A stretch of 64,000 nucleotides of DNA from IMG/VR virus record IMGVR_UViG_3300021400_000026; one strand, 5' to 3'. How positions within the stretch are numbered: position 1 is the stretch's first letter; each line of letters opens with the position of its first letter. Positions 26,154 through 59,192 of this stretch are shown here, piece after piece. The notes under the pieces are model-generated. The model was given only the letters and a program-made list of their open reading frames with translations. It was not told where the DNA came from and made no database searches. The DNA comes from a virus. The position numbers were made by a program, and so were the translations under genes.

Positions 26154-26226
26154 ATACCTTTTATTTCTTGTATCTGATAATCGTGCGTTTCATGTTCTTG
26201 GGTTTACTGGCGGCAGGAATCAGGGT

Positions 26227-27459
26227 TTAACTTTCTGGTGTAGGCCCGTCCGTCACTTGTGCCGTTTTTGCTGATGCGCCAGAACTGAAGAACACAACGC
26301 CAGAGAGCGTCACGATGGTCATTCGCGTCGACTTGATGTGACTCGAACCAGCAGAGCCGAAATCGTGGTCTGCCGTGCCTGCATAGCTTGAGCCTGCTGC
26401 AAGGTTTATTGAGTTTGTCAAGTCCTGCGTGTAGTCCACTGTATAGTCTTCTTTCAGATACTCGATGGTCATCTTCGTGATGGTCACGTTGTAGTCGCTC
26501 ATGGCGTTATCCAGTGTAAAGCTGTTGCGGATGATTCTTGGCTTCGACTCGTCTCTGTATGATGAGAGGAACAGCACTTTCACGTCTGCCCATCTGATTT
26601 GTATATGCACTCTTTGTGGCTCCACCAGCGCGATGTAGTTGCTTTGTGTGGTCGTAGTCGTCACCATCTTATAGATGTCGCGCTGATTTGGCGACTGTGA
26701 TCCACGTATGATGTCCGCGCTGGCGAATGGGAAGATGTCGTAGTCGCCCTCTATCTGTGGGTCTTCAGTATAGGCGTGAACGCTTGCACCCATCTGCTGA
26801 AACGAAACCATCGTATCGTTCTGCGTGATGGTGTATAGTTTCTTCAGGCTTGCGCTTGTCTGTCGGTTCCACAGTGAAAAGCCGAAATACATGTTGTAGA
26901 CCGAATATCCTCCCATCTGCAAGTCCTCGTATTTCACGGTCAGCCCTTCGCTCACGCCTTCCTCGTTCTTCTCGAATATGAATGTCATGTACCCGCCAGG
27001 CGATACTTCAACCGTCGAATACTTGAGATTGCCGAGCGGCTCTTTGGCGCGTTTGAAGTAGCCTTTCGAACTACTGTCAGTCGGGTCTTCAATCAGGTCG
27101 CTCAGTCTGAAGGCCGTCTGCGGTCGTGTGTAGCTCCAATATTCGGGCACAACGCCTATTTCTGGCGCATTGCTTGGACTGGTGTCGATACCAAACCAGA
27201 AGTTGAGCATTCGTCCCAGTTGCTTCGTATTCCAATAGGGGATGTTCCCGATGCCGTAGTTCACCGACATGCGCTGGTATTCGTTCAGGGCAAATCCGTA
27301 AGGCCCGCTGAGGTAATACTCCACAGGCTTGTATCTCGCCCATCGGTTGATGTCGCCGTGCTTGAACAAGTCTTGCAAGTCGTCTGTCTGATAGTCAAAC
27401 GCATCGCAAGCGTCGTCAAGCGTGTAAGGCAGCGAAATGATGTCGTTACTGAATCCCAT
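26227..27459 (-). CDS. hypothetical protein, last gene of the tail-fibre region
   Basis: 410-aa ORF overlapping the stop of the S74 fibre gene. No motif was recognised. Confidence 0.55.
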   Translation of the reverse strand: MGFSNDIISLPYTLDDACDAFDYQTDDLQDLFKHGDINRWARYKPVEYYLSGPYGFALNEYQRMSVNYGIGNIPYWNTKQLGRMLNFWFGIDTSPSNAPEIGVVPEYWSYTRPQTAFRLSDLIEDPTDSSSKGYFKRAKEPLGNLKYSTVEVSPGGYMTFIFEKNEEGVSEGLTVKYEDLQMGGYSVYNMYFGFSLWNRQTSASLKKLYTITQNDTMVSFQQMGASVHAYTEDPQIEGDYDIFPFASADIIRGSQSPNQRDIYKMVTTTTTQSNYIALVEPQRVHIQIRWADVKVLFLSSYRDESKPRIIRNSFTLDNAMSDYNVTITKMTIEYLKEDYTVDYTQDLTNSINLAAGSSYAGTADHDFGSAGSSHIKSTRMTIVTLSGVVFFSSGASAKTAQVTDGPTPES

Positions 27460-28204
27460 GATCTTTCAACAGTTTTTTGATTTCACGTAGTTCTCGGGCG
27501 ACGGATATGACAGCTACGAGTGCCGCCGTGCCGTACTGCATGGAGAGATTGCCTTCATGGTCTTCGCACACCACCTGTGGCATCACATCACGCCAGTATT
27601 GGGCGATGGTGCCCACGTGCTCGGTATCTCCCTGTCTGTCGCGCCACTTGAAGAGCACGGCTGGCGCATCGGCTATCTTGTCGAGGTCGAGCACCATCTC
27701 TTTGCTGACGATTTTCTTCCTTTCGTCTGACACGACCGATACGGCTGAGTCGGCAAAGAAGTTTTCAGCCCTTACGGTCACGCCACTGCGAGAGCTCCTG
27801 CCGTTGCCGAAGTCGTATTCCGTGATGGCTGATGATAGCTGGCCACCTTGACGACTGCCGTAGTTGAACCACATCTTATTGCTGCTCGGTGTGGTGTCAC
27901 AGATATTGAACTCGTTGGCACTTGGTGAGCCTGTTATCACATCCTGCACGCCCGTCCAAGGCACTTCGTCGGCTTCGTCGGCATGAACCGCTTTAGGTGC
28001 CTTCTCCTGATTCTTCCACTTCTCATCAGTGGCGTTATATACGAGCACGTCGCCGTCGGCCTCATTCTCTATCGCCGTGTCGCGGAGTTGCTTCAGCGAT
28101 CTTACGCCCTCGCCTCCACCGCCTACAGAGTTGCCGCCCTTAGCGTTGCTCACGTAGGAGTTGTTTTTTCCTACTCGCTTGATGTACTCTCTCGAAATCT
28201 TCAT
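27446..28204 (-). CDS. tail fibre protein with C-terminal Peptidase_S74 intramolecular chaperone domain
   Basis: Trimmed to MKISREY (the ATG overlaps the upstream stop, ATGA at 28201-28204). VSDERKKIVSKE..LFKWRD......VGTIAQYWRDVMPQVV....LSMQYGTAALVAVISVARELREIKKLLK is the S74 autoproteolytic chaperone pattern. Confidence 0.75.
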   Translation of the reverse strand: MKISREYIKRVGKNNSYVSNAKGGNSVGGGGEGVRSLKQLRDTAIENEADGDVLVYNATDEKWKNQEKAPKAVHADEADEVPWTGVQDVITGSPSANEFNICDTTPSSNKMWFNYGSRQGGQLSSAITEYDFGNGRSSRSGVTVRAENFFADSAVSVVSDERKKIVSKEMVLDLDKIADAPAVLFKWRDRQGDTEHVGTIAQYWRDVMPQVVCEDHEGNLSMQYGTAALVAVISVARELREIKKLLKDHGIQ

Positions 28205-30156
28205 AGCTGCATGATTTTTAGTGTCGTGATATTGTCGCGCCAGCGGTGGCTGATGGCCACGGGGTAGAAGTCCGCACTTTCGAGGCTTACCTTGTAGTCG
28301 GGCCCTATGCTGTTTGTGAGGTTCGTCCACAGGTCTATCTGTAGGCTCCGTCGGATGGTTGAACCGTAGGCTGCAATCAGGTCGGCAACGTGCTGCTCTG
28401 GCTTCAGCTGTGTGGTGCCAAATGGGATTGTGTTTGCCACGATGTTGCCGCTGTAGACGAGTCCATATCCAGCCTGGCATCTGAAAGTCTTCGCATTGAC
28501 GGTATTGGTCTTGTCTGATGAGAAGATGGTGTCTACGTTCACGTCGTCTGGGAAGCTGCCGCCGTTGGCGGTGTATTCCTTGTCGTTCAGGTCGTCCTCT
28601 TCGCCGTTTCTCACAAAACCTATCTTGAAGTCCATCAGTGGGAAGTAGCCGTTCCAATAGTTCTGATTCCTGAATACATCATCGACGGCAAAATAAATCT
28701 TTCCTATTATAGGCGCGGTGATTGGGATTCCCATGCCGTCGTAGTCAGCATTATTGTAAATCGTGTCTGTGTTCTCGATTCCATTGTCCTTCATCGACAG
28801 CTTGAATTTGCTGGCAGTCGATGTCCACGCCGTGCCATTCCAGTAAAGGTCACCAATCTTCAGTGTGCATTGTCCGGCATGGTCTTCTGAAATTTCAGTA
28901 TCTTCGTAGTCTGCACGGCCTGATATGTAGAGCACGCCGTCACCTAATATGACCGCACCCTGACTCTCCATCGAGAAGAGCGGAGTTGTGCTTCTTCTGT
29001 TGCCATAGTCCTCTGAGATGAAGCACTCATAGCATTTGTTCCAGCTGAATTTCTTCTTGTCATCTTCCGTATTGTCGTCGAAGGCTGCGAAACGACCATA
29101 GCACATCGGAATGCCTGCGCCTTCCTGCTGTTCTGCGTATGACGTAATCTTTATCATCGCATTCTCATAGTTGATGACTCCGCGATACAGTAGCCACACT
29201 TCCGTTGGCTCTGTCGGCTCGTTTCTCCACCGCTCAGCTCTTGTCGGTGTGTCGTACTTATACGGCCTACAGATGTCGTCGTATGGTATTTCCATGATGA
29301 CATCATAGGGATTCAACTCGGGGCTGACGGTAACTTTTTTCACGCCTGGAATGTACTCTTCGGAATGGTCGGTGCTGGCAAACATCGCGTCGGTCAGCGC
29401 GAGGCTCTTCATTGTGACGGGCGTGAACACAGGCGACGCGGCCTGCAACTGAGCCAACGGGCATGAGAGCCACCGCTGGTTGCGCAATCCGTCGGTGATG
29501 GCCGTGAAGTAGACACCGGCCCCACTCGTGCGGCACGTCCAACCGAAGAACTTGCACAGCTCCTGTAGCAGTCCCAGACATGTGAAGCGCGAGGTCAGTT
29601 CCACGCCGTTCTCTGTCAGGAAGTTGCGCCACGACAGCTTGTAAGCCAGCCATGCGCGAATGTCGTTGTCGGTCGATGATGATGCGTGGAAGTAGAAGGT
29701 GTAGCTCAGTCCAGTCAGCTTCGAGAAGATGTAATAGAGTAATTGTCCGAGCGTCACCATGTCGGCAGGCCCCGTCACTTCCACGTCGAATGAGTCGAGG
29801 GCTGACAGTCCGCAGATCAGCGGCAACTCAAACTCATTGTAGATGGCTGGGTAGGTCGTGCCGTAGGTTCCTGTCTGCACATAGCCCTGCCAGCGGATGG
29901 TGCTGCCCTGATAGAGCTTTACGGGCATGGCTGTTGCCGACGATGGGATGAACTGCCGCCACGTCGTATTGTCTTCTGCCACCATACGGACGTAGCCGCT
30001 TTGCGTCCTCACTGGCATAAACATGTCAGTGTCGGCATCTTCCTGAGTCTCTATCGGTTCCGATGAGAGTTTTGGCGATGTCGCTGGCGTCACGCCTCCG
30101 ATGTTCAGCGTGAAGGTTGTGCCGTCGAGTGCTACGAAGTTCTGCTGATATGCCAT
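28201..30156 (-). CDS. large tail-tip / baseplate protein
   Basis: 651 aa, located between the tape-measure-proximal tube-fold protein and the fibre genes. The call rests on position only. Confidence 0.5.
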   Translation of the reverse strand: MAYQQNFVALDGTTFTLNIGGVTPATSPKLSSEPIETQEDADTDMFMPVRTQSGYVRMVAEDNTTWRQFIPSSATAMPVKLYQGSTIRWQGYVQTGTYGTTYPAIYNEFELPLICGLSALDSFDVEVTGPADMVTLGQLLYYIFSKLTGLSYTFYFHASSSTDNDIRAWLAYKLSWRNFLTENGVELTSRFTCLGLLQELCKFFGWTCRTSGAGVYFTAITDGLRNQRWLSCPLAQLQAASPVFTPVTMKSLALTDAMFASTDHSEEYIPGVKKVTVSPELNPYDVIMEIPYDDICRPYKYDTPTRAERWRNEPTEPTEVWLLYRGVINYENAMIKITSYAEQQEGAGIPMCYGRFAAFDDNTEDDKKKFSWNKCYECFISEDYGNRRSTTPLFSMESQGAVILGDGVLYISGRADYEDTEISEDHAGQCTLKIGDLYWNGTAWTSTASKFKLSMKDNGIENTDTIYNNADYDGMGIPITAPIIGKIYFAVDDVFRNQNYWNGYFPLMDFKIGFVRNGEEDDLNDKEYTANGGSFPDDVNVDTIFSSDKTNTVNAKTFRCQAGYGLVYSGNIVANTIPFGTTQLKPEQHVADLIAAYGSTIRRSLQIDLWTNLTNSIGPDYKVSLESADFYPVAISHRWRDNITTLKIMQL

Positions 30157-30193
30157 AGTCTTTTTTTTCTGTCAATAAAACATTGTCGTGGGT

Positions 30194-30577
30194 TCACTCT
30201 GTATAGAACGGGCAGCGTCCCGTCCCCTTGAACTTGACCGTACCTTCGGCGAGATTGCCGACGGCTCCATTCAGGTCGGCCTGCTGACAGATCACCGTCC
30301 CCGTGCGCCGCTGGTCACCCACTACGACACTGATGGTGTACTTGTGGCGCACCTTCAGCAGTCCCTCAAACGGTTCGCCGGCAGTCACCAGGTGATTGAG
30401 CGATACGCTCCAGTCGTCGCGTCCTGGCACATAATCGCGGGCTTCCGCCGTCGATGGGGATGCAGTCTCTATCAGGTCGGTCTGATAACTGATGCTGCAC
30501 GTCTTGGCGGCTGCGATGATCTGGGTTGTCCCCGTCGAGCCCTGGTATATGAAAATGTTTTTCCCGAGAATTGCCAT
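30194..30577 (-). CDS. tail-tube-fold protein downstream of the tape measure (distal tail protein candidate)
   Basis: Trimmed to the ATG at 30577 (MAILGKN). It shares the pattern ..A.SCSIS....D......W..S... with the tube paralogs 35745..36188 and 36209..36631. Confidence 0.5.
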   Translation of the reverse strand: MAILGKNIFIYQGSTGTTQIIAAAKTCSISYQTDLIETASPSTAEARDYVPGRDDWSVSLNHLVTAGEPFEGLLKVRHKYTISVVVGDQRRTGTVICQQADLNGAVGNLAEGTVKFKGTGRCPFYTE

Positions 30578-32955: not shown

Positions 32956-33654
32956 TTATTCTTCATTAAATTGCGTTTCAATCCATTTCTCTACGTGCCC
33001 TGCGAGTGTCTGTCCCAGCTGCTGTGCTGCCTGTTCCATGTCGCTGCTCATGCTGTGGAAGAATGAGCGTGGAGCGATATTGCCGCGTCTACCCCATGAA
33101 GCCCTTGAACCGTGTCCGGTTGGTCCGTAAGATTTTGCCGTGCGCACATCAGTTCCGTTTTCTAAAAAGCGCAAAATAAATGATCTATCTGGGCCATAAT
33201 ACTCATTGATGTCTTTGGTTCGTTTGCTAACATATCGGGGTTTGATTTTGCCTGGCTCATACAGGCGCTTGTGGCTACTAATCCGGCCTCGATTTCCTCC
33301 TATGTTTATATTGCCCCCGAACTCACCTTTATACATTCGGCGAAGCACGGCAGACGATGCGCTTCCAGCACCAACGCCACGGGCTTTCTGCACGGCACGG
33401 GCACGCATAATACCCAGCACCTTGCCAAGTTCTGCACGCACCAGTTCAGAGAACCAACCATCGAATTCCTGCAACGACATGTTGCCGCCTTTGACCATTG
33501 CGACATTCTGAGTCACGCGGTCTTGGAGTTGTAGCTTACGAAGCACACTATCGACAGCCTTTTCGAGATTCTTCAATCCAGAAAAGTCTGCCATCAAACC
33601 GTCGATACGGTTGTTGGTGACGTTGAGTCCTTTGAAACCACTTACTAATGCCAT
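32956..33654 (-). CDS. hypothetical virion-module protein
   Basis: 232-aa ORF directly upstream of the tape measure. FILRFLENGT..RG.IAPRSFF faintly resembles HK97 gp10-type motifs. Confidence 0.45.
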   Translation of the reverse strand: MALVSGFKGLNVTNNRIDGLMADFSGLKNLEKAVDSVLRKLQLQDRVTQNVAMVKGGNMSLQEFDGWFSELVRAELGKVLGIMRARAVQKARGVGAGSASSAVLRRMYKGEFGGNINIGGNRGRISSHKRLYEPGKIKPRYVSKRTKDINEYYGPDRSFILRFLENGTDVRTAKSYGPTGHGSRASWGRRGNIAPRSFFHSMSSDMEQAAQQLGQTLAGHVEKWIETQFNEE

Positions 33655-33690
33655 AAAAAATGCCCGATTAGCTGTTACACTAATCGGGCA
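33655..33690 (-). terminator. intrinsic terminator
   Basis: The minus strand has an 11-bp stem, TGCCCGATTAG/CTAATCGGGCA, followed by TTTTTT. Confidence 0.75.
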
Positions 33691-33710
33691 TTTCGCTTGT
33701 AGGGGTTTAC

Positions 33711-34232
33711 TTATCCCTCCAGGTCGGGCTGGGTGCCGCCACCCTCGCCGCCTTCTCCGCCATCGCCGTTGCCGGTCTTGGCAACATAGGCTTTGGTCTC
33801 GATGCCGACACGCTTCACCTGATACTCCTCCTTCTCCAACAGGTCGGTGAATTTCTGCATACAGGTGGCACGGACGCGACAGGTGACACCGCCCGCCTTG
33901 TCGATCAGGTCGCCAGCGTTGTCCTCGGTGAGCTCGGTCACCGTCGGGTCGAGTTCCTTGGCACGGGCAAGGTTGATATTGCCACCCTTGATGTGGATGT
34001 CGGGGAAGATGCGGATGGCCACCTCGTCGCCCGCGTTCAGCTGGATGGCAAAGCCCTCGGCCATCTTCTCGGCTGCGGCTTTGCAGAAGTTCTCCAGCAC
34101 GGCTGCTGCCACCTGCTCAGGTATGAGCGCATTCTGATGCGAAATCTCACGAGCAAGTGCCTTCGTGTCGCAGGTACGGAGCACTTCATTGGCCGTAATC
34201 GTTTTCTCACTCTGTAGGGCTTCATTGCCCAT
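33711..34232 (-). CDS. HU-like (HU-HIG type) DNA-binding protein with Gly/Glu-rich tail
   Basis: This is the real 3' part of the composite ORF 33711..34919. The start is MGNEALQ (or MIDYKGQLN at 34259). LAREISHQNALIPEQVAAAVLENFCKAAAEKMAEGFAIQL resembles Bacteroidetes HU-like domains. Confidence 0.45.
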   Translation of the reverse strand: MGNEALQSEKTITANEVLRTCDTKALAREISHQNALIPEQVAAAVLENFCKAAAEKMAEGFAIQLNAGDEVAIRIFPDIHIKGGNINLARAKELDPTVTELTEDNAGDLIDKAGGVTCRVRATCMQKFTDLLEKEEYQVKRVGIETKAYVAKTGNGDGGEGGEGGGTQPDLEG

Positions 34233-34282
34233 GTTCAGTTGTCCTTTGTAATCAATCATAAAATAAAGGTTTTTAGGGTTTA

Positions 34283-34353
34283 TACTATAAAGGGTGTGAC
34301 CCTTTTTACTATAAAGGGTGTGACCCTTTTTACTATAAAGGTCGGCACCCTTT
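34283..34353. repeat. three 24-bp tandem units TACTATAAAGGGTGTGACCCTTTT
   Basis: Units lie at 34283, 34307 and 34331. Each contains the palindrome AAAGGGT-GTG-ACCCTTT. The core TA(C/G)TATAAAGGGTG and the 24-bp phasing match the array at 14545-14608. Confidence 0.75.
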
Positions 34354-34363
34354 TTGGGGGTCG

Positions 34364-34886: not shown

Positions 34887-34927
34887 TAAAAAAAGAAACT
34901 CGCCGATTAGTCGGCTCACTAATCGGC
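34887..34927 (-). terminator. intrinsic terminator
   Basis: CGCCGATTAGT-N6-ACTAATCGGCG followed by AGTTTCTTTTTTT on the minus strand. Confidence 0.75.
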
Positions 34928-34945
34928 GGTTATAGTACCTGGGGT

Positions 34946-35652
34946 TTACTCTTCCGTCTGGCTGTTGATCGCATCCATCACGTCCAGCAGTTCTTCCACG
35001 TCTTCAGCAGAGATGGGCGGCTCGTCGTCGTCATCGTCGAAGTCGAAGAGCATGGGGAACATGTCGGCCACGGTCTTGCCCTGTGGGTCGCGCATGACGT
35101 GGATGGCGGCATAGACGCATTCAGCCATCAGTTGATGCTTCAGCAGGTCGCGGCGACGGTAGCCGCGAATAATACGGCGCACCTCCCAGAAGCGGAGGTC
35201 GTAGAGAAACTCACGGCGAGGGATTCCGATTTCGCCCACTAACAACTGATAGATGTCGTGGGCGTTGCTTAGTTTTTTCCCTTACCCTTTCCTTTCGCTG
35301 GCTTTTCGGCTGGCTCGCCATTGGGGATGTTATAGAACTTCGCCCAAAGGTTGATGATGGTGCCGAGAGCCTTGCCGAGTTCGAGGGGCGTAGTGTCGTT
35401 CATCAGGTCGGTGTCCTTGATAGGTGCGTCTTTGTCTTGGCTCTGATAGTAGGCCATGACTGCAGACAGCACGAGGTAGATGCTGCGCTTAGCGTCCGGC
35501 ATCCGTGCGGGCTTGGCATTGACGCAGGCGATGGTCTCCTGGATGATGGCGGCAATGTCTTCGCCCGACAGGTCTTTGTAGGCGATTTCGGTGGCGTAGC
35601 AGTAGCCAAGTGTGACGGGCTTGCCTGCAAGTGTAATTTCTTCGTGGATCAT
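34946..35652 (-). CDS. tail assembly chaperone GT-like fusion made by programmed -1 frameshift
   Basis: The slippery heptamer G GGA AAA (35275-35281, correct zero-frame phasing) lies 2 codons before the stop of 35269..35652. The -1 frame stays open (AAA CTA AGC AAC GCC CAC GAC ATC TAT CAG TTG..) into ORF 34946..35245. Confidence 0.7.
35269..35652 (-). CDS. tail assembly chaperone (G-like)
   Basis: 127 aa, between the tail tube and tape-measure regions. It ends ..KGKGKGKN over the slippery site. Confidence 0.7.
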   Translation of the reverse strand: MIHEEITLAGKPVTLGYCYATEIAYKDLSGEDIAAIIQETIACVNAKPARMPDAKRSIYLVLSAVMAYYQSQDKDAPIKDTDLMNDTTPLELGKALGTIINLWAKFYNIPNGEPAEKPAKGKGKGKN

Positions 35653-39900: not shown

Positions 39901-39990
39901 AATGCTTAGAAATTTTAATTGTTAAACTTATACATACGGCACCTTGCCGTACACTTACCTGTTGATTTGTTGTCTTGGGTTTACTCTTTT

Positions 39991-42064: not shown

Positions 42065-42096
42065 ATCACTTTTTTAATTGATGGTTTACTTATTGG

Positions 42097-42888
42097 TTAT
42101 TTTCCCATCTGGGGTTTACTCCACAATTCCTCGTTCTGTTTCAGCCATTCGGCCTGCTGCTTCAGGGTGGCATTCTTCCAGCTTGCACTGCCGAGGTGTA
42201 CCACCATCGGACGGATGTCAACGTGCAGACCTTTCAGTCGTGGGCGATGGGTAAGCACGTCCTCCAGCAGGCTTGCGCCGGTGTCGTACCAGTTTTGAGG
42301 GTTGTCCTCACCCTTGTGGAGCATCCACGAGCGGTCGGGATCGAAGTAGTTCACGCCCTCTGCCCGGAACTTCGGCACGTTGAAGTAGCACAGCATCGGC
42401 AGTATGCGACCACGCCCGAAACGGTTTCCGCGCTGCTGCTTCTGAACATAACCGCAGAAGGAATACTCCTCACGCCACAGGGTGCTGATGTCGGCTTTCA
42501 CGAGGATGTCGCTCTCCACGAGAATGAATCCGTCCGGCAGCTGCTCCCAAAGTTTCTGCACGGTCATCATGTGACGGTCCGAGCCCCACAGGTTTACTTC
42601 GCCGTGCGGCTTGTGGCGGTCGGGGAAGGCCTGCAAAGCCTTGTCGAAGTCCACCTGCTGCCCCTTCGTATTGTCGATTATCTTCACGCCCTTCATGCGC
42701 TTCTTGAACGGGTGCGCCTCGATGGTGCGGGCAGGGAGTTCGTCACCGGCTGGCAGAGTCAAGTCCTGCGAATTGTCGAACACCACAATGGGCCACTCAC
42801 AGCCGTGCTTCCTGATTGACAGGATGCAGCACTCCACCAGTTCCGGCGTGTTCAGGTTGATAATGGCGATGGTCTGTTTCTTCTTCAT
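42097..42888 (-). CDS. GT-A (family 2-like) glycosyltransferase
   Basis: MKKKQTIAIINLNTPELVECCILSIRKHG..PIVVFDNSQD and VESDILV resemble the GT2 N-terminal Rossmann region and a DxD-like motif. Confidence 0.5.
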   Translation of the reverse strand: MKKKQTIAIINLNTPELVECCILSIRKHGCEWPIVVFDNSQDLTLPAGDELPARTIEAHPFKKRMKGVKIIDNTKGQQVDFDKALQAFPDRHKPHGEVNLWGSDRHMMTVQKLWEQLPDGFILVESDILVKADISTLWREEYSFCGYVQKQQRGNRFGRGRILPMLCYFNVPKFRAEGVNYFDPDRSWMLHKGEDNPQNWYDTGASLLEDVLTHRPRLKGLHVDIRPMVVHLGSASWKNATLKQQAEWLKQNEELWSKPQMGK

Positions 42889-43393: not shown

Positions 43394-43726
43394 TTATTGT
43401 CTGATTTCTTGTGCGATGATTTGTATCTGATTGTCTTGGCGGTCTTCCTGGAATTGGAGTATCTGGTATGTCTTCCCGCCCGAACGCAGACGACAGTCAC
43501 GGTTCACGATGTCGTTCCACCTCATGCGGATCATCACCACGTCGTAGGCTTCCAGTGCGCCTTCCTGCATGGGTCGTGCACCCTTCGTCCACGTCACGGC
43601 AGCCCACACACAGGCGGCCGTCTCGAACACTGGCTCACCCGAGCCGCGTCCGCGTTCGCCGGAGGTTGCCCGCTGACGGGTCAATATCTCCACTCTGTCC
43701 TTGAGCATTCCACTTGAATATGCCAT
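43394..43726 (-). CDS. head-tail adaptor / head closure protein (Phage_H_T_join-like)
   Basis: 110 aa. L.DRVEIL.........G......ACVWAAV....G.......A.....V.IRMRW......D.RL...GKTYQI matches the SPP1 gp16 / HK97-type pattern. Confidence 0.7.
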   Translation of the reverse strand: MAYSSGMLKDRVEILTRQRATSGERGRGSGEPVFETAACVWAAVTWTKGARPMQEGALEAYDVVMIRMRWNDIVNRDCRLRSGGKTYQILQFQEDRQDNQIQIIAQEIRQ

Positions 43727-43766
43727 ACGCTATTCGGTTGAATTAGTACCTTGGGTTTACTGCATG

Positions 43767-43825
43767 AAACTTACCTACCTTTCTTTGTTGCTCTTAGTAG
43801 GGTATCTTTCGGAAGAATCCCTATA
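43767..43825 (-). repeat. inverted copy of the 4266..4325 element
   Basis: See feature 4266..4325. Confidence 0.6.
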
Positions 43826-43890
43826 TTCTTGTCGGAGAATAACTATGTTCTTGTCAGAGAATAACTATGTTCTTGCCAGAGAATAACTAT
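43825..43890 (-). repeat. three tandem 22-bp repeats abutting the portal stop codon
   Basis: Plus-strand units are ATTCTTGTCGGAGAATAACTAT, GTTCTTGTCAGAGAATAACTAT and GTTCTTGCCAGAGAATAACTAT, at 43825, 43847 and 43869. Confidence 0.8.
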
Positions 43891-45302
43891 CAACTTTCCT
43901 CGCCCTCCTTTGGTGGTTCCTGCACGGTGTAACTGCCCGGCTTCAATTCCGTTGCGCCCTCGCTCTTGGCGATGAGAGCCTTCAGCGTCATCAGGTTGGC
44001 ACTGGCCAGCGGCTCGTCGCCGTTCTCCACTGCCGGGCGGTCGTACTGCTGTCTGATCTCGTTGATGGTCGAAGCACCCGTCTGGAGCATAATCTGGTCA
44101 ACCTTCGCCTGAGCCTCCTTGTCAAGCCGCATGAGTGGCTGTTCGCACATGTGGAACCGTCGCATTCCGAAGTCGTACTGGTTCAGCAGCTTGGAGTTGA
44201 ACTCCTGCTCAATCTCCGTGATGTCGGGCTGAATGGTCCATTGCAGCAACTCCATTCGTGCGTTCTGATAGGTCGTGTAATGCGAGTTGGTATCTTCCAT
44301 CAGCAGCGGACGTTGAACACCGTAATACCTACAAACGTCGTTGATACCCATTCCTAACACCTCAATCATCTGCTGGTCTTGTGCCGACATGCTGATGTTG
44401 TGGAGGGCAGACAGTCCACGGATGCCCACCACGTCCTGCTGGTACATCTTCGTGTTCAGTTCCTTGGCGTAGGAGTCAATCTGTTCCTTGTTCAACAGTC
44501 CGAATGACAGCGTACCGGCACCCTGCGCCGGCTTCTCCTCACCGATGATGAGTTTCACGCGTCCGCCCTTCGCAGCCGTTTCCAGTGCCTGGTTCGTTTC
44601 CGTCTTGATGAGCGAGAGCGTGTCAAAGGCATAGTGAAGCGTGGAGATACCCCAGCCGTTGGTCATCTTGTAGGTGTTGGGGATGTGGATCACGTCCGAT
44701 GCTTCCACTGCATCAATATTCATGATGCCCCGGCGGGTGTAGTATTGCACACGATATGTGCCGTTGGCTTCATTGTAGCCGGCACCGAAGCAGAGCCACA
44801 ATGCCACGGGCCATCCCCGGTCGTCGCGCTCGATGTAGGCGATGCCGTTGCCGTTCTGGAGTTTCGAGATGACCAGCCCCTGCATGAAGGCCGAAGCCGT
44901 CATCATCGGGTTCGGACGGACTTGCAGCAGGTAGTTCAACTGCTGCCCATAGGTGACATACTGACTGCACACGGCTCCCACTTCAGGAACGAAATTACCG
45001 CCCTTTTTGTCGAGTTTCTGATACTGGAGCATAAACTGCCCCTCCGTCTTGGCTATCAACCCGACGGCACGATAGACGGCGGGAACGGTCAGTGCTGCCT
45101 GTGGCGTCAGCACATGGCGGATGTGCGACTGGAACGAGCCGCTTTCGCCCGTAGCCTTGCTGCTGGTGGTTTCCGGCTCAGCCACATTCGTCTGGTCAGT
45201 GGTCTCGCGTACAGCCATTAACGGCATGTCGTCCACCGCCTCGCGCTGAAAACTATTGAATCTTGAAAAATTGCTCATATACGTCTTTTTCAAATCGGTC
45301 AT
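43890..45302 (-). CDS. portal protein, HK97 family
   Basis: 470 aa. ..VRPNPMMTASAFMQGLVISKLQNGNGIAYIERD fits the Phage_portal pattern. Confidence 0.85.
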   Translation of the reverse strand: MTDLKKTYMSNFSRFNSFQREAVDDMPLMAVRETTDQTNVAEPETTSSKATGESGSFQSHIRHVLTPQAALTVPAVYRAVGLIAKTEGQFMLQYQKLDKKGGNFVPEVGAVCSQYVTYGQQLNYLLQVRPNPMMTASAFMQGLVISKLQNGNGIAYIERDDRGWPVALWLCFGAGYNEANGTYRVQYYTRRGIMNIDAVEASDVIHIPNTYKMTNGWGISTLHYAFDTLSLIKTETNQALETAAKGGRVKLIIGEEKPAQGAGTLSFGLLNKEQIDSYAKELNTKMYQQDVVGIRGLSALHNISMSAQDQQMIEVLGMGINDVCRYYGVQRPLLMEDTNSHYTTYQNARMELLQWTIQPDITEIEQEFNSKLLNQYDFGMRRFHMCEQPLMRLDKEAQAKVDQIMLQTGASTINEIRQQYDRPAVENGDEPLASANLMTLKALIAKSEGATELKPGSYTVQEPPKEGEES

Positions 45303-45354
45303 TTTGCCGTTATGGGTTTACCCGTCGGCACGGAGCCGACGGGCACACGATGGA

Positions 45355-47246: not shown

Positions 47247-47363
47247 GTATCAGTTGCCGAAGCCGATGTTCGTGTTCGCGTTCGAGGGCGAGTTGTTAGC
47301 GTTCATCGTCAACGGAGACAGGTTCGTGTTGTTAGCGTTGTTGCCGCGGCGAAAACCACGAAC
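47247..47363 (-). repeat. DGR template repeat (TR)
   Basis: 117 nt with 100/117 identity to 47755-47871. On the coding strand it reads as an AAC-rich, untranslatable segment (..GNNANNTNLSPLTMNANNSPSNANTNIGFGN*). Confidence 0.9.
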
Positions 47364-47534
47364 CGACGGATCAGTGCAGCCGCCTTATCATTCTGTGAAA
47401 GAACTCAACCTCACCACCTGACGGGTACTCCGATTCCCTTGTGCGCTTTGGTCGGTGGCCTGGATTTCTGCATCAACGATGTCGCACCACATCTCCACAC
47501 TATGCTGTCGATTCCTCGTATTGGGTTTACCAGA

Positions 47535-47576
47535 CAAAAAAACCGAGGCCACCCCACCATCGGGATGACCTCGGTT
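47535..47576 (-). terminator. intrinsic terminator between VR and TR
   Basis: Minus strand reads AACCGAGG-N20-CCTCGGTT followed by TTTTT. Confidence 0.65.
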
Positions 47577-47742
47577 TCTGAATTTTCCACCCGCGACCTC
47601 CTTGAGGCGGTATCTTCACCCCTCCTTTCAGTCTGGGCCGCGCTGTCGCGCGGGTTTTCGTTTTCGGCCCTCACTACGTTCGGGCGGTTTACGTTTTCTT
47701 TTTCGGACGGGTCACTCACTTCGCTCGTGACGGACGTTTACG

Positions 47743-50140: not shown

Positions 50141-50632
50141 CTAATTATTTTTCAAAACACGGAGCCGGAGACCGTTTACGTCGCGGAAGTAGTTCTGGAA
50201 GATGTCGCGCAGATAGCGGAACAGACTTCGCTTATCGCTGCGGAGCGTGCGCTCATAGGACACGTAGATACCCTGATAGATACCACCCTCGTCGCGCATC
50301 ATCTGTGGCATCCTCGAACTGGTGTTCACGAAGCACAGCGGCTGCTGCTCCTTCTCTGTGCGGTAGCCGTCGGCATAGTCACCGTCGGGCACGTCGTAGG
50401 CACACTCCACCGTCACCACGCCAACCATGTCATTCGTCGGGAACGTAAAGAACCACTGGTCGGCCTCGTCTTTCATCATTTCCGACTTCTGTATCACGAG
50501 CGTCCGTCCCTGCATGCCCCATTTGAGGGTCACCGAAAACGGGTTCTCTGACATGGAGAATCCTTCTCGCTCGATGGCGATGCGGTACTTTGCCTTCTCG
50601 CCTTGCTGAATGATGTTCTTGCTGTTGATCAT
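50141..50632 (-). CDS. hypothetical virion-module protein
   Basis: ORF-track ORF of 163 aa. Confidence 0.55.
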   Translation of the reverse strand: MINSKNIIQQGEKAKYRIAIEREGFSMSENPFSVTLKWGMQGRTLVIQKSEMMKDEADQWFFTFPTNDMVGVVTVECAYDVPDGDYADGYRTEKEQQPLCFVNTSSRMPQMMRDEGGIYQGIYVSYERTLRSDKRSLFRYLRDIFQNYFRDVNGLRLRVLKNN

Positions 50633-50674
50633 ATCTAAGATACTTTATATTTCACTTGTTTTGCCGTATCGGGT

Positions 50675-50965
50675 TTACTGCGGTATCCGTTCTTCAGCTG
50701 GATAGACCCTGAGAGCCTTGTCGCTGCTGTCGCGGAGCGTCAGCAGGTTCACGTCGCGGAGCGTCAGCATGCCCGTCTGCTGCACGATGGTGACTTGTGC
50801 CGAAGCCCGTCCGTCTGCCGTCCGTAAGGTAATGACTTGCTGGCGGTCACTGCCCAGATTGTCGGTGGTAGAACGAACGGTAACGACTCCATCACCTTGT
50901 CCGTCGTATGTCAGGATGATGTCGCCGTTGCCGTCGGTCCAGGGGATGGTGAGTGTCTTTGCCAT
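50675..50965 (-). CDS. hypothetical beta-rich protein
   Basis: ORF-track ORF whose start shares one nucleotide with the upstream stop. Confidence 0.5.
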   Translation of the reverse strand: MAKTLTIPWTDGNGDIILTYDGQGDGVVTVRSTTDNLGSDRQQVITLRTADGRASAQVTIVQQTGMLTLRDVNLLTLRDSSDKALRVYPAEERIPQ

Positions 50966-51607: not shown

Positions 51608-51853
51608 TTATTCGATTCGCCAGTCAAGCGTTGTTATTATCTCGTACCGCACCACATTGCCAGGCGTGACCCACTGAAGCGTCTGCGCCTTCTCGGGTGT
51701 GACCCTGATTGGCTTGTAGAGATTGCGACGCTCATCAAGTTGCGCGTTGACATAAATGCCGTTCGGTACGCTCCACGTTCGCGGATGTGCCTGGCATGTC
51801 AGCAGCCTAATGCCGCTATGAACTGAACCTGTGATGAGTCTTGCGCTGTTCAT
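51608..51853 (-). CDS. hypothetical small protein
   Basis: ORF-track ORF overlapping the upstream stop. Confidence 0.5.
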   Translation of the reverse strand: MNSARLITGSVHSGIRLLTCQAHPRTWSVPNGIYVNAQLDERRNLYKPIRVTPEKAQTLQWVTPGNVVRYEIITTLDWRIE

Positions 51854-52479
51854 CCTCGAATGGTGATGTGTGGGTTAATGCGAACAACTGACTTGCGGAA
51901 CCCGCTGGGGAAGTCTTTATCTGGAATCTGGAACGTCACCTTTACCATGAGCGTGCCAATGCCATAGTCGTCGGTGTTGATGATAACCACGTAGTCGCCT
52001 TCGTCGGTCAGTATGCACTCCGTCTTCTTGAACGTCTTCCTCTTGTCCTTGGCGTCGGCATTGACCACTTCCACGGTGAAGTCCACATCTTGCATGGTGA
52101 GGTCGTCCGGCAGTTCCGACGTGATGAGTATCTTCTCTTGCGAGCCGAGCGTGACGGTCTGCTGCCTAATCCCGCAAGGCTCAGAAGTCAGCCGCATGTA
52201 CGGCTTGATGAGCATGTCGAAAGCGTAAGGCACACTACTCAGGTTCTGAGCCGACGAAGGCTCACGGTGCTGGTACGATTGTCCCACCAGCAGCATAGCG
52301 GCCTGAACCAGCGGGGCCGGCACTTCGCCGTAACTTTCCAGCAGATCATGGTAGTTGCGGTTCAGCAGGTTCAGCAAGGTGTCCTCTGCGGCCTTGCCAT
52401 ACTCGTCGAGTAAGGTGTCCTCTTCGCTCCAGTCTATACGAAGCTGCTGCTTGATGTAATCCAATGTGAGAAATTTCAT
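51850..52479 (-). CDS. gp6-like head-tail connector protein with C-terminal extension
   Basis: Trimmed to MKFLTLDYIKQQLRIDWSEEDTLLDEYGKAAEDTLLNLLNR..APLVQAAMLLVGQSYQHRE, which follows the Phage_connect_1 pattern. Confidence 0.65.
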   Translation of the reverse strand: MKFLTLDYIKQQLRIDWSEEDTLLDEYGKAAEDTLLNLLNRNYHDLLESYGEVPAPLVQAAMLLVGQSYQHREPSSAQNLSSVPYAFDMLIKPYMRLTSEPCGIRQQTVTLGSQEKILITSELPDDLTMQDVDFTVEVVNADAKDKRKTFKKTECILTDEGDYVVIINTDDYGIGTLMVKVTFQIPDKDFPSGFRKSVVRINPHITIRG

Positions 52480-52552
52480 ATTTCTGCCTTTTTTACTTAG
52501 CGGCAGAAATACGTCTTGGGGTTTACCGCCTGCCGACAACTGGGGCAAGCGC

Positions 52553-52663: not shown

Positions 52664-53107
52664 TTATCGTTTTAAAAGATTGTCGATAACTTGTCTGCGG
52701 TTTCGCCCATAAGGTGGAGCGACATACGAGACGTGAATCCAGTACGTGCCGTTGCGGTCGTGCTCCCAGATGAGTTGGTCGAAGTTCAAATGCGTCTTGA
52801 TCCAGTCAAACCACTTGCGGCCTTTCTTCATATCGCCGTCGATGCAAAGGTCTGCCGCCTGCCCTTTCGTGTGCTGACTGTTCGAGACACCGCCAACGGC
52901 TCTGTTCAGCCGCTCGCAACGGTAGCCGCTGCTGATCCTGATGGGCTCGTTCATCGCCTCGCGGAGCGGTTCAAGCACGTAGGCAGCGAGATACACCAGA
53001 CAGATGATTTGCTGTACGTTCGGTTTGTTGTCAATTCCCTTCGCCTTGGCGGTCGCGCTGGCGTAGAGCTCTTCAATCGTAAAGTGCATGGTTACGGGTG
53101 TGGACAT
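52664..53107 (-). CDS. endolysin, Peptidase_M15 (D-Ala-D-Ala carboxypeptidase-like) family
   Basis: FTIEELYAS....KGIDN.P.......L......LEPLREAMNEPIRISSGYRCERLNRAVGGVSNSQHTKGQAADL is the M15_3/M15_4 zinc-peptidase signature (SxHxxGxAxD). Confidence 0.85.
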   Translation of the reverse strand: MSTPVTMHFTIEELYASATAKAKGIDNKPNVQQIICLVYLAAYVLEPLREAMNEPIRISSGYRCERLNRAVGGVSNSQHTKGQAADLCIDGDMKKGRKWFDWIKTHLNFDQLIWEHDRNGTYWIHVSYVAPPYGRNRRQVIDNLLKR

Positions 53108-53160: not shown

Positions 53161-53706
53161 CTAAATCTCATTATCAGGCTCGATGTCATGCTGCTTCGCC
53201 TCTGGGCGGATGGTGTTCTCAATCTCCCCGCTTGGCGAGATGGTTACGGGTACACGGATGGCGCAGCCGTTCCGTCCACACAGGAAAGGGCGCATAAAGG
53301 CAACCATTCGGCTGTTACGTGCCACCTCGAACTGCAAGTCCCTCATCGCCTTCTCCAGCTTGTCCTGACGTTTGCGCAGGTCGTCACGCTCCTGGCGTAA
53401 GTGTTGGCGGTCTTCTTTCAGCTCGGCGATGTACTGCTTCTGCTCGTCGTTGTACTGCTGTTGCGTTTCGAGGTTCGCCTTCAGGTCGGCTGTCAGCTGC
53501 TGATAACTGTCCTGAATCTCCTTTGTCAACTGGGCGTTGGCCTGCATCGCCTCGAACTTTGCCTTTTCCGCCTCGGCTTCTGCTGCCTTGGCTTCCGACT
53601 TGGCCTTCTTTCGCTGGTATCTCCATGTGAAGAATGCCCCGCCACCGCCACCCAGTAGAAGGGTCACGATAGCAATGATGTTGTCGATAGATAGGATGTC
53701 TGTCAT
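53161..53706 (-). CDS. type-II membrane coiled-coil protein (holin/spanin-region candidate)
   Basis: Trimmed to MTDILSIDN. A transmembrane segment (IIAIVTLLLGGGGGAFFTW) is followed by a long coiled coil. The gene lies directly upstream of the endolysin. Confidence 0.4.
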   Translation of the reverse strand: MTDILSIDNIIAIVTLLLGGGGGAFFTWRYQRKKAKSEAKAAEAEAEKAKFEAMQANAQLTKEIQDSYQQLTADLKANLETQQQYNDEQKQYIAELKEDRQHLRQERDDLRKRQDKLEKAMRDLQFEVARNSRMVAFMRPFLCGRNGCAIRVPVTISPSGEIENTIRPEAKQHDIEPDNEI

Positions 53707-53771
53707 TTCTTGATGATTTATAAACTTACAAATCATGAGAAACGACGCTATGGGTTTACTCTGTGCTTTTC

Positions 53772-54556: not shown

Positions 54557-54970
54557 TTATATAATACCAGATTGCTTCATGCGTCGGTATAATGTCCTTT
54601 CAGAAACGCTCATTATTTTTTCGAGTTCATTCTTTTCGTACTCTAATATAGGCAACCTATGCTCTTCTTCTTCGATGTATTCCTCGATGGTTTCTTCCTT
54701 TGAGGTCGGTACCGGCTTTGGTGTCAGGCGTTTCAACGGTGCCAGGTCTGTGAGTCCTGGGTCGATGATGTCAACAGTCATGCCGAGTGCTTCGGCTATC
54801 TGCTGGATGGTGACGTAGGCCACGCTCACCAGTTTGCCCTTCTCGATGCGCCCGATGTGCTGGCGGGTCAGTCCGGCACGGTCAGCCAGTTCCTGTTGGC
54901 TGATGCCCTCCAGTTTGCGCAGGGCAGTGATACGCTGCCCCATGCGCTGTGCTGCTTGTTCTTTACTCAT
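54557..54970 (-). CDS. XRE-family HTH regulator (paralog 2 of 3) with C-terminal extension
   Basis: MGQRITALRKLEGISQQELADRAGLTRQHIGRIEKG, plus the shared AEALGMTVDIIDPGLTDLAPLKRLT block. A second HTH-like tail is present (MSVSERTLYRRMKQSG). Confidence 0.8.
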   Translation of the reverse strand: MSKEQAAQRMGQRITALRKLEGISQQELADRAGLTRQHIGRIEKGKLVSVAYVTIQQIAEALGMTVDIIDPGLTDLAPLKRLTPKPVPTSKEETIEEYIEEEEHRLPILEYEKNELEKIMSVSERTLYRRMKQSGII

Positions 54971-55856: not shown

Positions 55857-55915
55857 AATCTCTCTGCCCTTCCGGGTCTTGGGGTTTAATTTGTTATTTG
55901 TTTCTTTTTCTGATG

Positions 55916-55947
55916 CAAAGATACGACAATTATTCTAAATGCACAAG
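55916..55947 (-). promoter_or_regulatory. Bacteroidetes-type promoter (-7 box TATCTTTG)
   Basis: The reverse complement of CAAAGATA at 55916-55923, with a weaker -33-like CTTG 20 nt upstream. The local sequence GATGCAAAGATACGA is the same as at 7506. Confidence 0.55.
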
Positions 55948-56056
55948 TTTTTGTGCATTTATTTTGCGTTTAAGCATACCTTTTTATGCTTTTTCTTGCC
56001 ATTTTGCATAAGATGACACCAAATTGTAACCTTAAATATTACAAAACAGCCCCCCA

Positions 56057-56932: not shown

Positions 56933-57388
56933 TTACTCTGTCTTTCCATCCGCCCACGACAACCCATGCTTTGCCAGCAGATCGTCGAGGCACTCCATCG
57001 ACTTCTTTCCTGAATCACGGAATTTCAGCCAGTCCATCCTACTGAGCTTCGTTAGGTCGCGCAGCGTCTCGATACCCTCACGTTTGCAGATTTTGTAAGC
57101 ACGAATACTTAAGTCAGCCTTGCACTCCTCGATGGTCATATCCAGAAACGGATTGCAAACCGTCTCATCCTGTTCCTCGTCCTGAACCTCGTCAATATAC
57201 AAGCCGATACGGTCAGGCCGCGTGCCGTCGATCACTCTGAGGCGCACTGTGTAAGTGTATTCCTCCTCATTATCATCCCCGTAGTGCAGCACCACCATGT
57301 CGCCAACGGCTGGCACCACACCACTCCAGTTCGGCCACTGCTTGATAAACTCGCCCGTGTCGTTCTTATAAAAGCTAATCTGTGTCAT
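56933..57388 (-). CDS. protein with C-terminal RNA polymerase alpha-CTD-like domain
   Basis: DLSIRAYKICKREGIETLRDLTKLSRMDWLKFRDSGKKSMECLDDLLAKHGLSW aligns position by position with E. coli alpha-CTD ([55 protein letters not shown]). Confidence 0.65.
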   Translation of the reverse strand: MTQISFYKNDTGEFIKQWPNWSGVVPAVGDMVVLHYGDDNEEEYTYTVRLRVIDGTRPDRIGLYIDEVQDEEQDETVCNPFLDMTIEECKADLSIRAYKICKREGIETLRDLTKLSRMDWLKFRDSGKKSMECLDDLLAKHGLSWADGKTE

Positions 57389-57400
57389 AGTTCCTTTGTT

Positions 57401-57669: not shown

Positions 57670-58194
57670 TTACAATTTCGATTTTGTATAACTCCATCCC
57701 ATTTTCTTAGACAGAGTTTGCCATTGTATATGAGTCGCTTCGTCCATACTGACATTTTTCCCTGACTTAACAAGTTTGTCTATTTTCTTTATTGCCGATT
57801 CACTTGTTTTGTTATTGATGTCGTGAAGTTGCGATGCTTTTATTCCCCATCCTTTTTGTGGTCGTTTCAAAGAATAGACGATTCCACTCTGGGTGATAAC
57901 GTGCATTTCGGACTGATTGGTTGATATTGCGGTTTCAATATCCCCATAAGAAAAAGTCGAACTTCCGGGATGATTGTGAACAGTTACACGATTTGCCGCC
58001 AAAGCGTCATCAAATTCCACATGCTTATCATCACCGTCAGCACGAAAAACTTCTTTTCCGTTCTTATCGAAAATAGAAACATGTTCATCGTAGCTGTTTT
58101 GTATTTCTTTCATTCGAGCTGACAAAGCCCTTTCAAGTCCACGTGAACCACTTCCCATGCCTCCGGCTGCTCCGCCTCCTGCTCTACCTCCCAT
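57670..58194 (-). CDS. protein with a JAB/MPN-like HNHP...SxxD motif
   Basis: VTVHNHPGSSTFSYGDIE resembles the RadC/JAMM HxHx6-7SxxD motif. The N-terminus is Gly-rich. Confidence 0.35.
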   Translation of the reverse strand: MGGRAGGGAAGGMGSGSRGLERALSARMKEIQNSYDEHVSIFDKNGKEVFRADGDDKHVEFDDALAANRVTVHNHPGSSTFSYGDIETAISTNQSEMHVITQSGIVYSLKRPQKGWGIKASQLHDINNKTSESAIKKIDKLVKSGKNVSMDEATHIQWQTLSKKMGWSYTKSKL

Positions 58195-58295
58195 ATCTAT
58201 ATACTTTTAATTGATTAAACTTACTACAATACGGCTGCAAAACCGCTGAGGGTTTACCATCCGTGTAATCCGTGTAATCCGTGTTTGTTTTTGGT

Positions 58296-58844
58296 TTACT
58301 TAAACTGTCTTGCTTGCATCTTGCGCTTGATGGCTTCGGCACGGAGGCGTTCCATGCCCTGCTGGAACTTCGCCACGGCCTTGTCGCGGTATTCGTGCAG
58401 GGGGTTGAGGGTGGGCATCATGGTGCCGTCCCGGCGGGGAATCGTAAAAGTGTCCTGATAGCCGGGCTGGTTCATTTGTTCGGTCAGGCGGTCGATGAAC
58501 GTTTTCTGCTGGGCGAGTTCGTCGAGGTCGAGGGCGAGGGAGTCGGTCCAGAGGTTGTCGGCCTGGAGGGTGCGGCGTATCTGGTCGCGGTTCTGCTCGG
58601 TCTGCTGGCGGCGGCGGTCGGCTTCCTCGGCCTCGGTCTTGGGGTCGCGCTGCTGCTGCATCTGGAGGTTGAGCACGAAGGCGACGGCTTGCAGATCACC
58701 ACTGAGAGCCTTTTGTACGATGGTCATGCCGATGGCGGCTTCGGATGTAACGATGTTGCCGTCTTCGTCGGTCATGTACTCCTGGGTGCCCTTGCGCTTC
58801 ACGGGGGCAGAGAGTTGCTTGATGATGGTGTCCTTTAAGTCCAT
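58296..58844 (-). CDS. hypothetical helical protein
   Basis: 182-aa ORF. TIVQKALSGDLQAVAFVLNL only faintly recalls small-terminase helices. Confidence 0.5.
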   Translation of the reverse strand: MDLKDTIIKQLSAPVKRKGTQEYMTDEDGNIVTSEAAIGMTIVQKALSGDLQAVAFVLNLQMQQQRDPKTEAEEADRRRQQTEQNRDQIRRTLQADNLWTDSLALDLDELAQQKTFIDRLTEQMNQPGYQDTFTIPRRDGTMMPTLNPLHEYRDKAVAKFQQGMERLRAEAIKRKMQARQFK

Positions 58845-58854
58845 AGTTCGCTTG

Positions 58855-58898
58855 ATAAAAATGATAAGAGAGGCCGCTGCGTTGCGGTCTCTCTTATC
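58855..58898 (-). terminator. intrinsic terminator
   Basis: GATAAGAGAG-N16-CTCTCTTATC followed by ATTTTTAT on the minus strand. Confidence 0.7.
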
Positions 58899-58919
58899 GG
58901 TGGGGATGGTGGCGGGGGT

Positions 58920-59192
58920 TTACTCCGTCAGACGTTTCAGCAGTGCGAGGTCTTGCAAGGCTGGGTCGATGATGTCAACCGTCATGCCGAGGGCTTCGGC
59001 GATGGCTTGCAGCGTCTCGATGTTCAGCGAGTATCTGCCTTTCTCTATCCGCGATATGTGGGTACGTTGCAACCCTGCTTTCTCCGACAACTGCTCTTGG
59101 CTCAGTCCGGCATTCTTGCGCAATGCTGCGACACGCATTCCGATGCGCTGGCGTACTTCTTTGCGCTTCACGTTTTTTTCTTCTGTCTCCAT
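58920..59192 (-). CDS. XRE-family HTH regulator (paralog 3 of 3)
   Basis: IGMRVAALRKNAGLSQEQLSEKAGLQRTHISRIEKG. The DNA at 58927-59027 is about 96% identical to 6062-6162. Confidence 0.85.
   Translation of the reverse strand: METEEKNVKRKEVRQRIGMRVAALRKNAGLSQEQLSEKAGLQRTHISRIEKGRYSLNIETLQAIAEALGMTVDIIDPALQDLALLKRLTE

Follow-up and report, generated by a model that had tools for sequence, protein, structure and literature searches.

A repeated two-block element, probably a promoter, in the late region of a Prevotella phage family

We analysed a 64,000-nt stretch of viral DNA (IMG/VR record IMGVR_UViG_3300021400_000026, hereafter the window) in which the 8-mer GTAAACCC recurs at gene boundaries of the minus (coding) strand. 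The repetition of this 8-mer is real and highly non-random and, judged from its sequence context, GTAAACCC is the -35-like half of a bipartite element of ~35 bp, not a stand-alone signal. We estimate at about three in four the probability that the element represents a class of middle/late promoters conserved across a Prevotella phage family, with an architecture like that of extracytoplasmic function (ECF) or sigma-28 promoters (GTAAAC-N18-CGAT). What was observed directly is the cis element itself, with its conservation, orientation and position. The phage genome is circularly permuted and measures ~66.5 kb; the window represents 64.0 kb of it, and an identical ENA contig, NODE_914 (66,484 bp), adds the other 2,554 bp.

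A co-oriented two-block element in the late region

The original prediction, made from the letters of the window alone, had reported 13 exact copies of GTAAACCC in a single orientation, against about one expected at random, and none in the early left arm. The recount agrees exactly, in number and coordinates: 13 copies are found on the minus strand and 0 on the plus strand, and dinucleotide shuffles of the window contained 1.03 copies on average and 4 at most. All copies fall within 26200-58923, with none in 1-26199 and none in 58924-64000, and a 14th, on the same strand, is found in the 2.55 kb of the phage genome absent from the window (L068:13917). Twelve of the 13 lie outside coding sequence in a genome that is ~90% coding; the sole copy inside a coding frame, at 42112 as had been stated, is in the last 7 codons of a 263-aa open reading frame (ORF). 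One-mismatch variants of GTAAACCC are overall at chance level (33 vs 31.5 expected). Of the proposed near-variants, those at 26223, 52660 and 58292 indeed coincide with stop codons, but none has the downstream block described below and all score close to background; a further one at 42082 is the second block of the 42112 site and not a separate copy.

When the copies were aligned in register, the 8-mer at positions 0-7 was followed by a weak RAC at +10 to +12, by A(A/T)(A/T)(A/T)(C/T) at +16 to +20 and by a second block, cCGATAAGTA.A, at +23 to +34. To this alignment we added instances from 38 related loci, anchored on the capsid gene, for a total of 66 non-redundant instances. In the pooled logo, information peaks at 0-7, +17 to +20 and +25 to +34, with a purine (R) at -1 and nothing upstream of -1; within the second block, G25 is conserved in 54/66, T31 in 42/66 and A34 in 49/66 instances. 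A position weight matrix (PWM) was then built independently of the window, from the downstream part only of 39 non-orthologous instances in relatives with <85% capsid identity, and it ranked 13/13 window copies in the top 0.35% of window positions. AAC and CGA are both present, with a spacer of 18 nt between them in the GTAAAC type and of 19 nt in the GGGAAC type. The element consists of two blocks at fixed spacing, co-oriented with the downstream gene, as in promoters read by an alternative sigma factor. A PWM restricted to the downstream block is A-rich and gives many weak matches on the A-rich coding strand, among which only a site at 11411 is prominent.

The original prediction had placed its emphasis on gene ends and stop codons. 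The stop codons are real, since an ORF check agrees that the TAA of GTAAACCC is the stop at 58916, 50671 and 34942, but the element is tied to the start of the next gene: an ATG opening an ORF of at least 50 codons lies 23-149 nt past position 0 in 64/66 unique instances (median 53, mode 44-48), while a stop codon is donated by only 15/66 and, in the window, the preceding stop codon is at a variable distance, from -140 to +20. A hairpin with a T-run ends no more than 22 nt upstream of 9/66 instances, compared with 1% of random positions and 2% of other long-ORF starts; as had been noted, such a structure stands just upstream of the copies at 53752, 52519 and 47523. In three other window copies (58916, 34942 and 33703) the second block itself forms the 5' arm of a terminator hairpin. 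Stop-codon use and terminator overlap are best read as by-products of compact gene packing.

We next compared the distribution of the element with that of host-type promoters. In Bacteroidota, sigma-A promoters carry TTTG at -33 and TAnnTTTG at -7 (PMC7366714, PMC9723704). The downstream block of the element, consensus GATAAGTA.A, does not match this -7 box, in line with the earlier remark that the motif is unlike it. Perfect TAT(C/A)TTTGCA boxes occur on the coding strand only at 63240, 60056, 55923, 21635 and 7516, and on the plus strand at 21501, before the repressor gene; the boxes at 21635 (-) and 21501 (+) are divergent and flank the repressor switch region. No such coding-strand box was found between 26 kb and 53.8 kb, where 11 exact GTAAACCC-type elements and a single weaker variant are located. 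Because the sigma-A boxes are confined to early regions, early, lysogeny and replication genes would use host sigma-A, while lysis, morphogenesis and diversity-generating retroelement (DGR) genes would use the other class. Three of the sigma-A boxes belong to an 83-nt region present in three copies (7505-7587, 55912-55994 and 60045-60127, minus strand), each with the perfect box TATCTTTGCA and each heading a small operon with a paralogous XRE helix-turn-helix (HTH) gene (6058-6306, 54557-54970 and 58920-59192), whose products share the conserved C-terminus IAEALGMTVDIIDP.L.DL..LKRLT. An E. coli-type promoter scan of the window was uninformative.

Conservation and exchange of the upstream box in related phages

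The oriented element recurs in related phages, a check that the original prediction had proposed, and often stands before non-orthologous genes. Across the 38 capsid-anchored loci, the gene strand has 74 copies of GTAAACCC and the opposite strand 2. An exact search of IMG/VR for GTAAACCC-N16-CGATAAGT returned 77 stretches; the 76 new loci (562 kb), each seeded by one bipartite match, contain 112 additional same-strand copies and 2 opposite ones, where ~8.6 per strand are expected. The orientation totals in the two sets of relatives are 74:2 and 188:2.

The upstream box is not constant in more distant lineages. Three loci with 58-63% capsid identity (L031, L033 and L042) carry GGGAACCA-N17-CGATAAGTAGA before TerL, portal, capsid and other genes, so that the A-rich middle element and the second block (CCGATAAGTAGA) are kept and the upstream box is swapped. 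Two other loci (L070 and L071) have GTAAACCA or GTAAACCG with CCGTAT(T/A)(G/A)T, and another (L074) has GTTTACCG or GTAAACCT as its upstream box. A swappable upstream box with a constant downstream block is as expected of a -35/-10 promoter and is hard to square with a single RNA or protein-binding word. A search of IMG/VR with a sister-lineage pattern carrying the same information matched only the two contigs already known and 7 singletons, which serves as a rough estimate of chance; the GGGAACCA type is limited to two contigs.

Even in close relatives the element can precede different genes: one of them, L001, has a promoter-like element and a connector gene after its capsid gene, and its element at 17380 shares sequence with the window site 39977 only from ~+32 onward. 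Cassettes of element and gene sit differently in phages whose capsid genes are 99% identical (L001:17380 vs 39977; L001:11334 vs 52519), and their homology breaks at or within the element. Repeated promoters may in this way double as points of module exchange. The capsid relatives come from rumen viromes and two Prevotella metagenome-assembled genomes, and a nucleotide search of a phage collection gave no match to isolated relatives. Among isolated phages the closest, with 30% capsid identity, is Bacteroides phage Bacuni_F1, in which the element was not found.

Promoter activity, rival explanations and candidate factors

From these features we infer promoter activity, together with a start site, a timing and a reading factor, as follows. 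Each GTAAACCC would serve as a -35-like box in the arrangement R-GTAAACCC, ~8 nt, A(A/T)(A/T)(A/T)C, ~3 nt, cCGATAAGTA.A, and the promoters would drive lysis, head, DGR, tail and a few accessory genes during lytic growth of a temperate 66.5-kb Prevotella phage. Transcription would start at ~+35 to +39 from the G of the 8-mer, ~5-7 nt past the second block, leaving very short leaders or none. Where the second block lies in the 5' stem of a terminator, the new RNA would begin past that arm and escape, and transcripts arriving from upstream would be terminated. The host RNA polymerase core would read the elements with a specificity subunit other than sigma-A, as suggested by an architecture of group 3/4 sigma (sigma-28 or ECF) type and not of sigma-A type. 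This subunit could be a phage factor too divergent to be recognised, which we prefer, or a host ECF sigma.

Several observations weigh against this interpretation. No recognisable sigma-70-family gene is present among the scanned phage ORFs, and the two conserved candidate proteins considered below have no fold match to sigma factors. The AAC-to-CG spacer, at 18-19 nt, is longer than the 16-17 nt of ECF promoters. Moreover, 10/66 instances lie in an open frame that runs at least 12 codons beyond the motif, and in some instances an ATG at +32 to +36 implies either leaderless transcripts or mis-called starts.

Among ECF promoters, B. subtilis sigma-X recognises TGTAAC-N17-CGAC and sigma-W TGAAAC-N16-CGTA, and E. 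coli sigma-E recognises GGAACTT-N16-TCTGA. The element resembles them in the AAC of its -35 box (GTAAAC/GGGAAC), the CG(A/T) of its -10 box, its rigid spacing and a specificity that can be swapped via the -35 box; it differs in its spacer, in a long -10 block (~10 nt, GATAAGTA.A) and in an extra A-rich middle element, and neither an ECF sigma gene nor an autoregulated sigma/anti-sigma pair was seen in the phage. The best literal resemblance is to the sigma-28 (FliA/SigD) consensus TAAA-N15-GCCGATAA, to be compared with TAAA-N17-CCGATAA in the element; here the spacer is 2 nt longer, the sister-lineage box GGGAACCA has no TAAA, and the search of the phage turned up no group 3 sigma gene. Bacteroidota are not known to have FliA. 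With a spacer 1-3 nt longer than in ECF and sigma-28 promoters, the element is not filed under either family. Bacteroidota sigma-A promoters share with it the host core RNA polymerase and similarly short leaders, but they have another consensus, and the two classes occupy mutually exclusive parts of the genome.

Many co-oriented non-host sites in morphogenesis genes, with host promoters used early, are likewise seen with SPO1 gp28 and gp33/34, T4 gp55 and the MotA box, and gp36 of phiEco32 and 7-11. The specificity factors of these systems are known and mostly recognisable members of the sigma-70 family, unlike in the present phage, where no recognisable factor was detected. The late activators RinA, ArpU and LtrC of Gram-positive phages act on a single late promoter upstream of terS (PMC3152322, PMC3753634). 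These systems, and P2 Ogr, have a small regulator gene between the replication genes and terS, a position held here by 11013-11360 and 12418-13221; they differ in that ~14 promoters are dispersed in this phage and that the two candidates have no sequence or fold similarity to those regulators.

Three other explanations were weighed. Among the options listed by the original prediction, that of a late promoter or activator site is supported, and in one form it would dispense with a new sigma factor: a phage DNA-binding protein on GTAAACCC would replace the -33 element while host sigma-A reads the downstream block, as in T4 MotA/AsiA-like appropriation or with a class II activator. The failure to find a sigma gene in the phage fits this scheme, as do an upstream box that differs between lineages over a constant downstream block and the site at 11411, which has that block without the box upstream of the Zn-finger, TerS and TerL genes. 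We nevertheless judge it unlikely, because the downstream block (G25, T31, R32, A34) is not TAnnTTTG, whereas the early promoters of the same phage fit TAnnTTTG perfectly.

The other options on that list, processing, antitermination (nut/put-like) or re-initiation on a polycistronic late transcript, are not supported. Such an RNA-level signal would account for the location at gene junctions, for the stop codons supplied by the element and for the three window copies just 5' of a hairpin. Yet RNAalifold applied to the 66 instances (-5 to +60) gave an empty consensus structure with an energy of 0.0, strong folding being limited to 13 instances that overlap terminators, and an Rfam scan of the window had no family at the element, its sole match being a tRNA (20262-20335). 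There is thus neither a shared secondary structure nor covariation, and two rigidly spaced, unpaired sequence blocks are typical of DNA recognition. In addition, many copies lie past intrinsic terminators, where read-through RNA is scarce, and the distance to the upstream stop is highly variable, all of which makes an RNA signal very improbable. An oriented DNA signal unrelated to transcription (Chi-like, for packaging or replication, or a recombination linker between modules) would agree with the single orientation of all copies and with homology between relatives that sometimes breaks at the element, as at L001:17380 vs window 39977. Chi-like signals, however, also occur in coding DNA, have no second block and no fixed relation to start codons, whereas nearly all window copies are non-coding; module exchange is moreover an expected side effect of repeated promoters. 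We give this last explanation hardly any credence.

We then searched for a factor that might read the proposed promoters. No sigma-70-family domain was found in Pfam and PHROGs scans of ~80 window ORFs (including the early, replication and packaging regions), in 10 ORFs of the early region of a GGGAACCA-type sister phage, or in precomputed Pfam matches for a 20.5-kb segment of the source contig spanning the 2.55-kb gap. RpoE and SigW, used as phmmer queries, had no match among all six-frame ORFs from the window and 150 loci, and PDB sequence searches of four proteins of unknown function returned no sigma, one of the four matching SUSP1 Vipr. Iterative comparison of the two phage types left only two shared non-structural families of unknown function, those of 11013-11360 and 12418-13221. 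Both belong to a conserved gene order that begins with helicase and primase and continues with the 12418-13221 family, HNH, a promoter region, the 11013-11360 family and TerS/TerL; the gene order from primase to TerS/TerL is fixed across diverse Bacteroidales phages. In the sister phage a full late-type promoter precedes the 11013-family gene, whose window counterpart is preceded by the box-less 11411 site.

The 11013-11360 (-) product is a Zn-finger protein of 115 aa with four invariant cysteines (C19, C22, C43 and C74). The 12418-13221 (-) product has 267 aa, belongs to a very large family of 1,497 clusters at 90% identity (180 representatives at 50%) and begins with a beta-alpha-alpha, ribbon-helix-helix (RHH)-like N-terminus; when PDB sequences were searched with a profile, nothing beyond a weak DinJ/RHH hint emerged. 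Both proteins gave confident AlphaFold models (pLDDT 89 for 11013-11360 and 81 for 12418-13221), and neither matched the PDB in Foldseek with E < 1. Both proteins are positional candidates. That the phage family redirects host RNA polymerase to ECF-like promoters through a non-sigma-70 factor, with 12418-13221 and 11013-11360 as candidates, is a tentative proposal that we find more doubtful than convincing; if true, it would mean that Bacteroidota have a promoter-specificity subunit or sigma appropriator of a new class.

Other genes with a possible connection to transcription were seen. The 56933-57388 (-) product has a C-terminal domain like that of the RNA polymerase alpha subunit (Pfam RNA_pol_A_CTD, E = 5e-9), and a similar alpha-CTD-like C-terminal domain was recognised by eye in 2585-3238 (-). 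In L070 (1108-2277) and L071 (1108-2283), a gene for the DNA polymerase III beta sliding clamp is flanked by the Zn-finger-family gene and TerL, and no gene for a polymerase is close by. The T4 sliding clamp activates late transcription, and a parallel with the clamp gene of these two loci would be purely speculative.

Transcriptional control in Bacteroidota phages is almost unmapped. The kind of element described here is familiar and its consensus is new to the literature searched, in which no description of the motif was found; the absence of a recognisable sigma factor is the one feature possibly beyond routine. With the 35-bp consensus, late transcription units could be annotated in Prevotella phage contigs from rumen and gut, which number in the hundreds. 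The consensus could also serve as bait for the specificity factor and supply promoters that are compact and probably orthogonal for the engineering of Prevotella and Bacteroides.

Individual sites and other features of the genome

In the window, all of the sites are on the minus strand and are described here in the direction of the genes, from high to low coordinates. The first promoter-like element (58889..58924, with its 8-mer at 58916-58923) provides with its TAA the stop of the XRE HTH gene 58920-59192; its second block, CCGATAAGAGAG, extends into the 5' stem of a terminator hairpin, and the next gene, 58296-58844, encodes a TerS-like protein of 182 aa. The element at 58223..58258, itself preceded by 9-bp tandem repeats, CACGGATTA, stands before 57670-58194 (174 aa), whose product has a JAB/MPN-like HxHP motif, recognised by eye. 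These repeats (2.5-3 copies) occur at 58258-58283, abutting the promoter-like element at 58250, and again at 8502-8530 (-), just past the TerL terminator and upstream of 8071-8391, which is paralogous to 60384-60737. An operator function is possible for them.

The element at 53725..53760 comes right after a terminator and before a lysis cassette formed by 53161-53736 and the M15 peptidase (endolysin) gene 52664-53107. That at 52492..52527 follows the terminator 52578-52561 and leads into the gp6-like head-tail connector gene, 51850-52479. The TAA of the next element (50644..50679) is the stop of a BACON-like gene, 50675-50965, and the genes downstream are 50141-50632 and the DGR target gene, 47743-50118.

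The DGR lies around the element at 47496..47531, which follows the terminator 47556-47544. Directly behind this late-type promoter (8-mer at 47523) stand the template repeat (47251-47363, minus strand) and the reverse transcriptase gene (45708-47045, minus strand), while the variable repeat (47759-47871, minus strand), 87% identical to the template repeat, is located at the 3' end of the 791-aa target gene. Diversification of the tail fibre would thereby be coupled to lytic growth. A single ORF, 47411-47719 (102 aa), separates the target gene from the template repeat; it was considered as avd and rejected, as by eye its product is not helical-bundle-like and the ORF spans the terminator and the promoter-like element.

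The top PWM score, 38 bits, belongs to the element at 45287..45322, upstream of the portal gene (43890-45302), whose conserved start is at 45278. Three 22-nt tandem units, AGAATAACTATGTTCTTGTCAG, occupy 43814-43890 between the portal stop codon and the promoter-like element at 43753. The latter (43726..43761) has an ATG at +34 (43726), so that either the transcript would be leaderless or the true start is an in-frame ATG 6 codons further on. The element at 42085..42120 overlaps the last codons of ORF 42097-42888 and precedes 41342-42064 and the major capsid protein gene (40085-41320); another, at 39950..39985, follows the capsid gene and precedes 39016-39900.

The element at 34915..34950 donates its TAA as the stop of 34946-35245, and its second block, CCGATTAGT, is the 5' stem of the terminator 34928-34901. 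The element at 33676..33711 has the same second block, CCGATTAGT, again as the 5' stem of a terminator hairpin, and the next gene is 32956-33654. Three 24-nt tandem units, each an AAAGGGT...ACCCTTT hairpin, lie at 34263-34355 between two tail-region genes. A weaker variant, AGTGAACCC (30163..30198, 14.5 bits), has the 8-mer variant GTGAACCC at 30190, in which TGA is the stop of the upstream ORF, and an ATG at +41 that opens a 651-aa gene, 28201-30156; it is at most a possible member of the promoter class. The last exact copy in the window (26173..26208) lies upstream of the last minus-strand gene, 25650-26153, which encodes a membrane protein.

Outside this interval, the partial element GAAACGCACGATAATTAAA (11377-11412, minus strand, position 0 at 11411; 17.6 bits) has the middle and second blocks, with ATCGGAAT in place of GTAAACCC, 50 nt upstream of the Zn-finger, TerS (10651-11013) and TerL (8612-10654) genes, and is possibly a related promoter whose upstream box is different or missing. 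The 14th GTAAACCC element (L068:13917-13952, gene strand) falls in the part of the circle that joins window position 64000 to position 1; after it come three 22-nt direct repeats, AACTCTCAAAAGAGAATCGGCA, and the gene downstream encodes an HU-HIG DNA-binding protein.

The window also encodes a primase and an AAA_25 helicase and, on the opposite strand, a tyrosine integrase and a CI-like repressor (21717-24002). Five 67-nt repeats, each with GGATATAACTTTGC, are found at 18124-18530; they are iteron-like and may mark an origin. After them come three 41-nt repeats (20023-20208) and the tRNA gene (20262-20335), which scores 48.9 bits in Rfam and to which ARAGORN assigns an odd four-base anticodon, tgca. 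Finally, the 238-aa product of 18889-19605 (-), which has no Pfam family, matches PDB 36pp_D, 'SUSP1 Vipr protein', with E = 1e-29.

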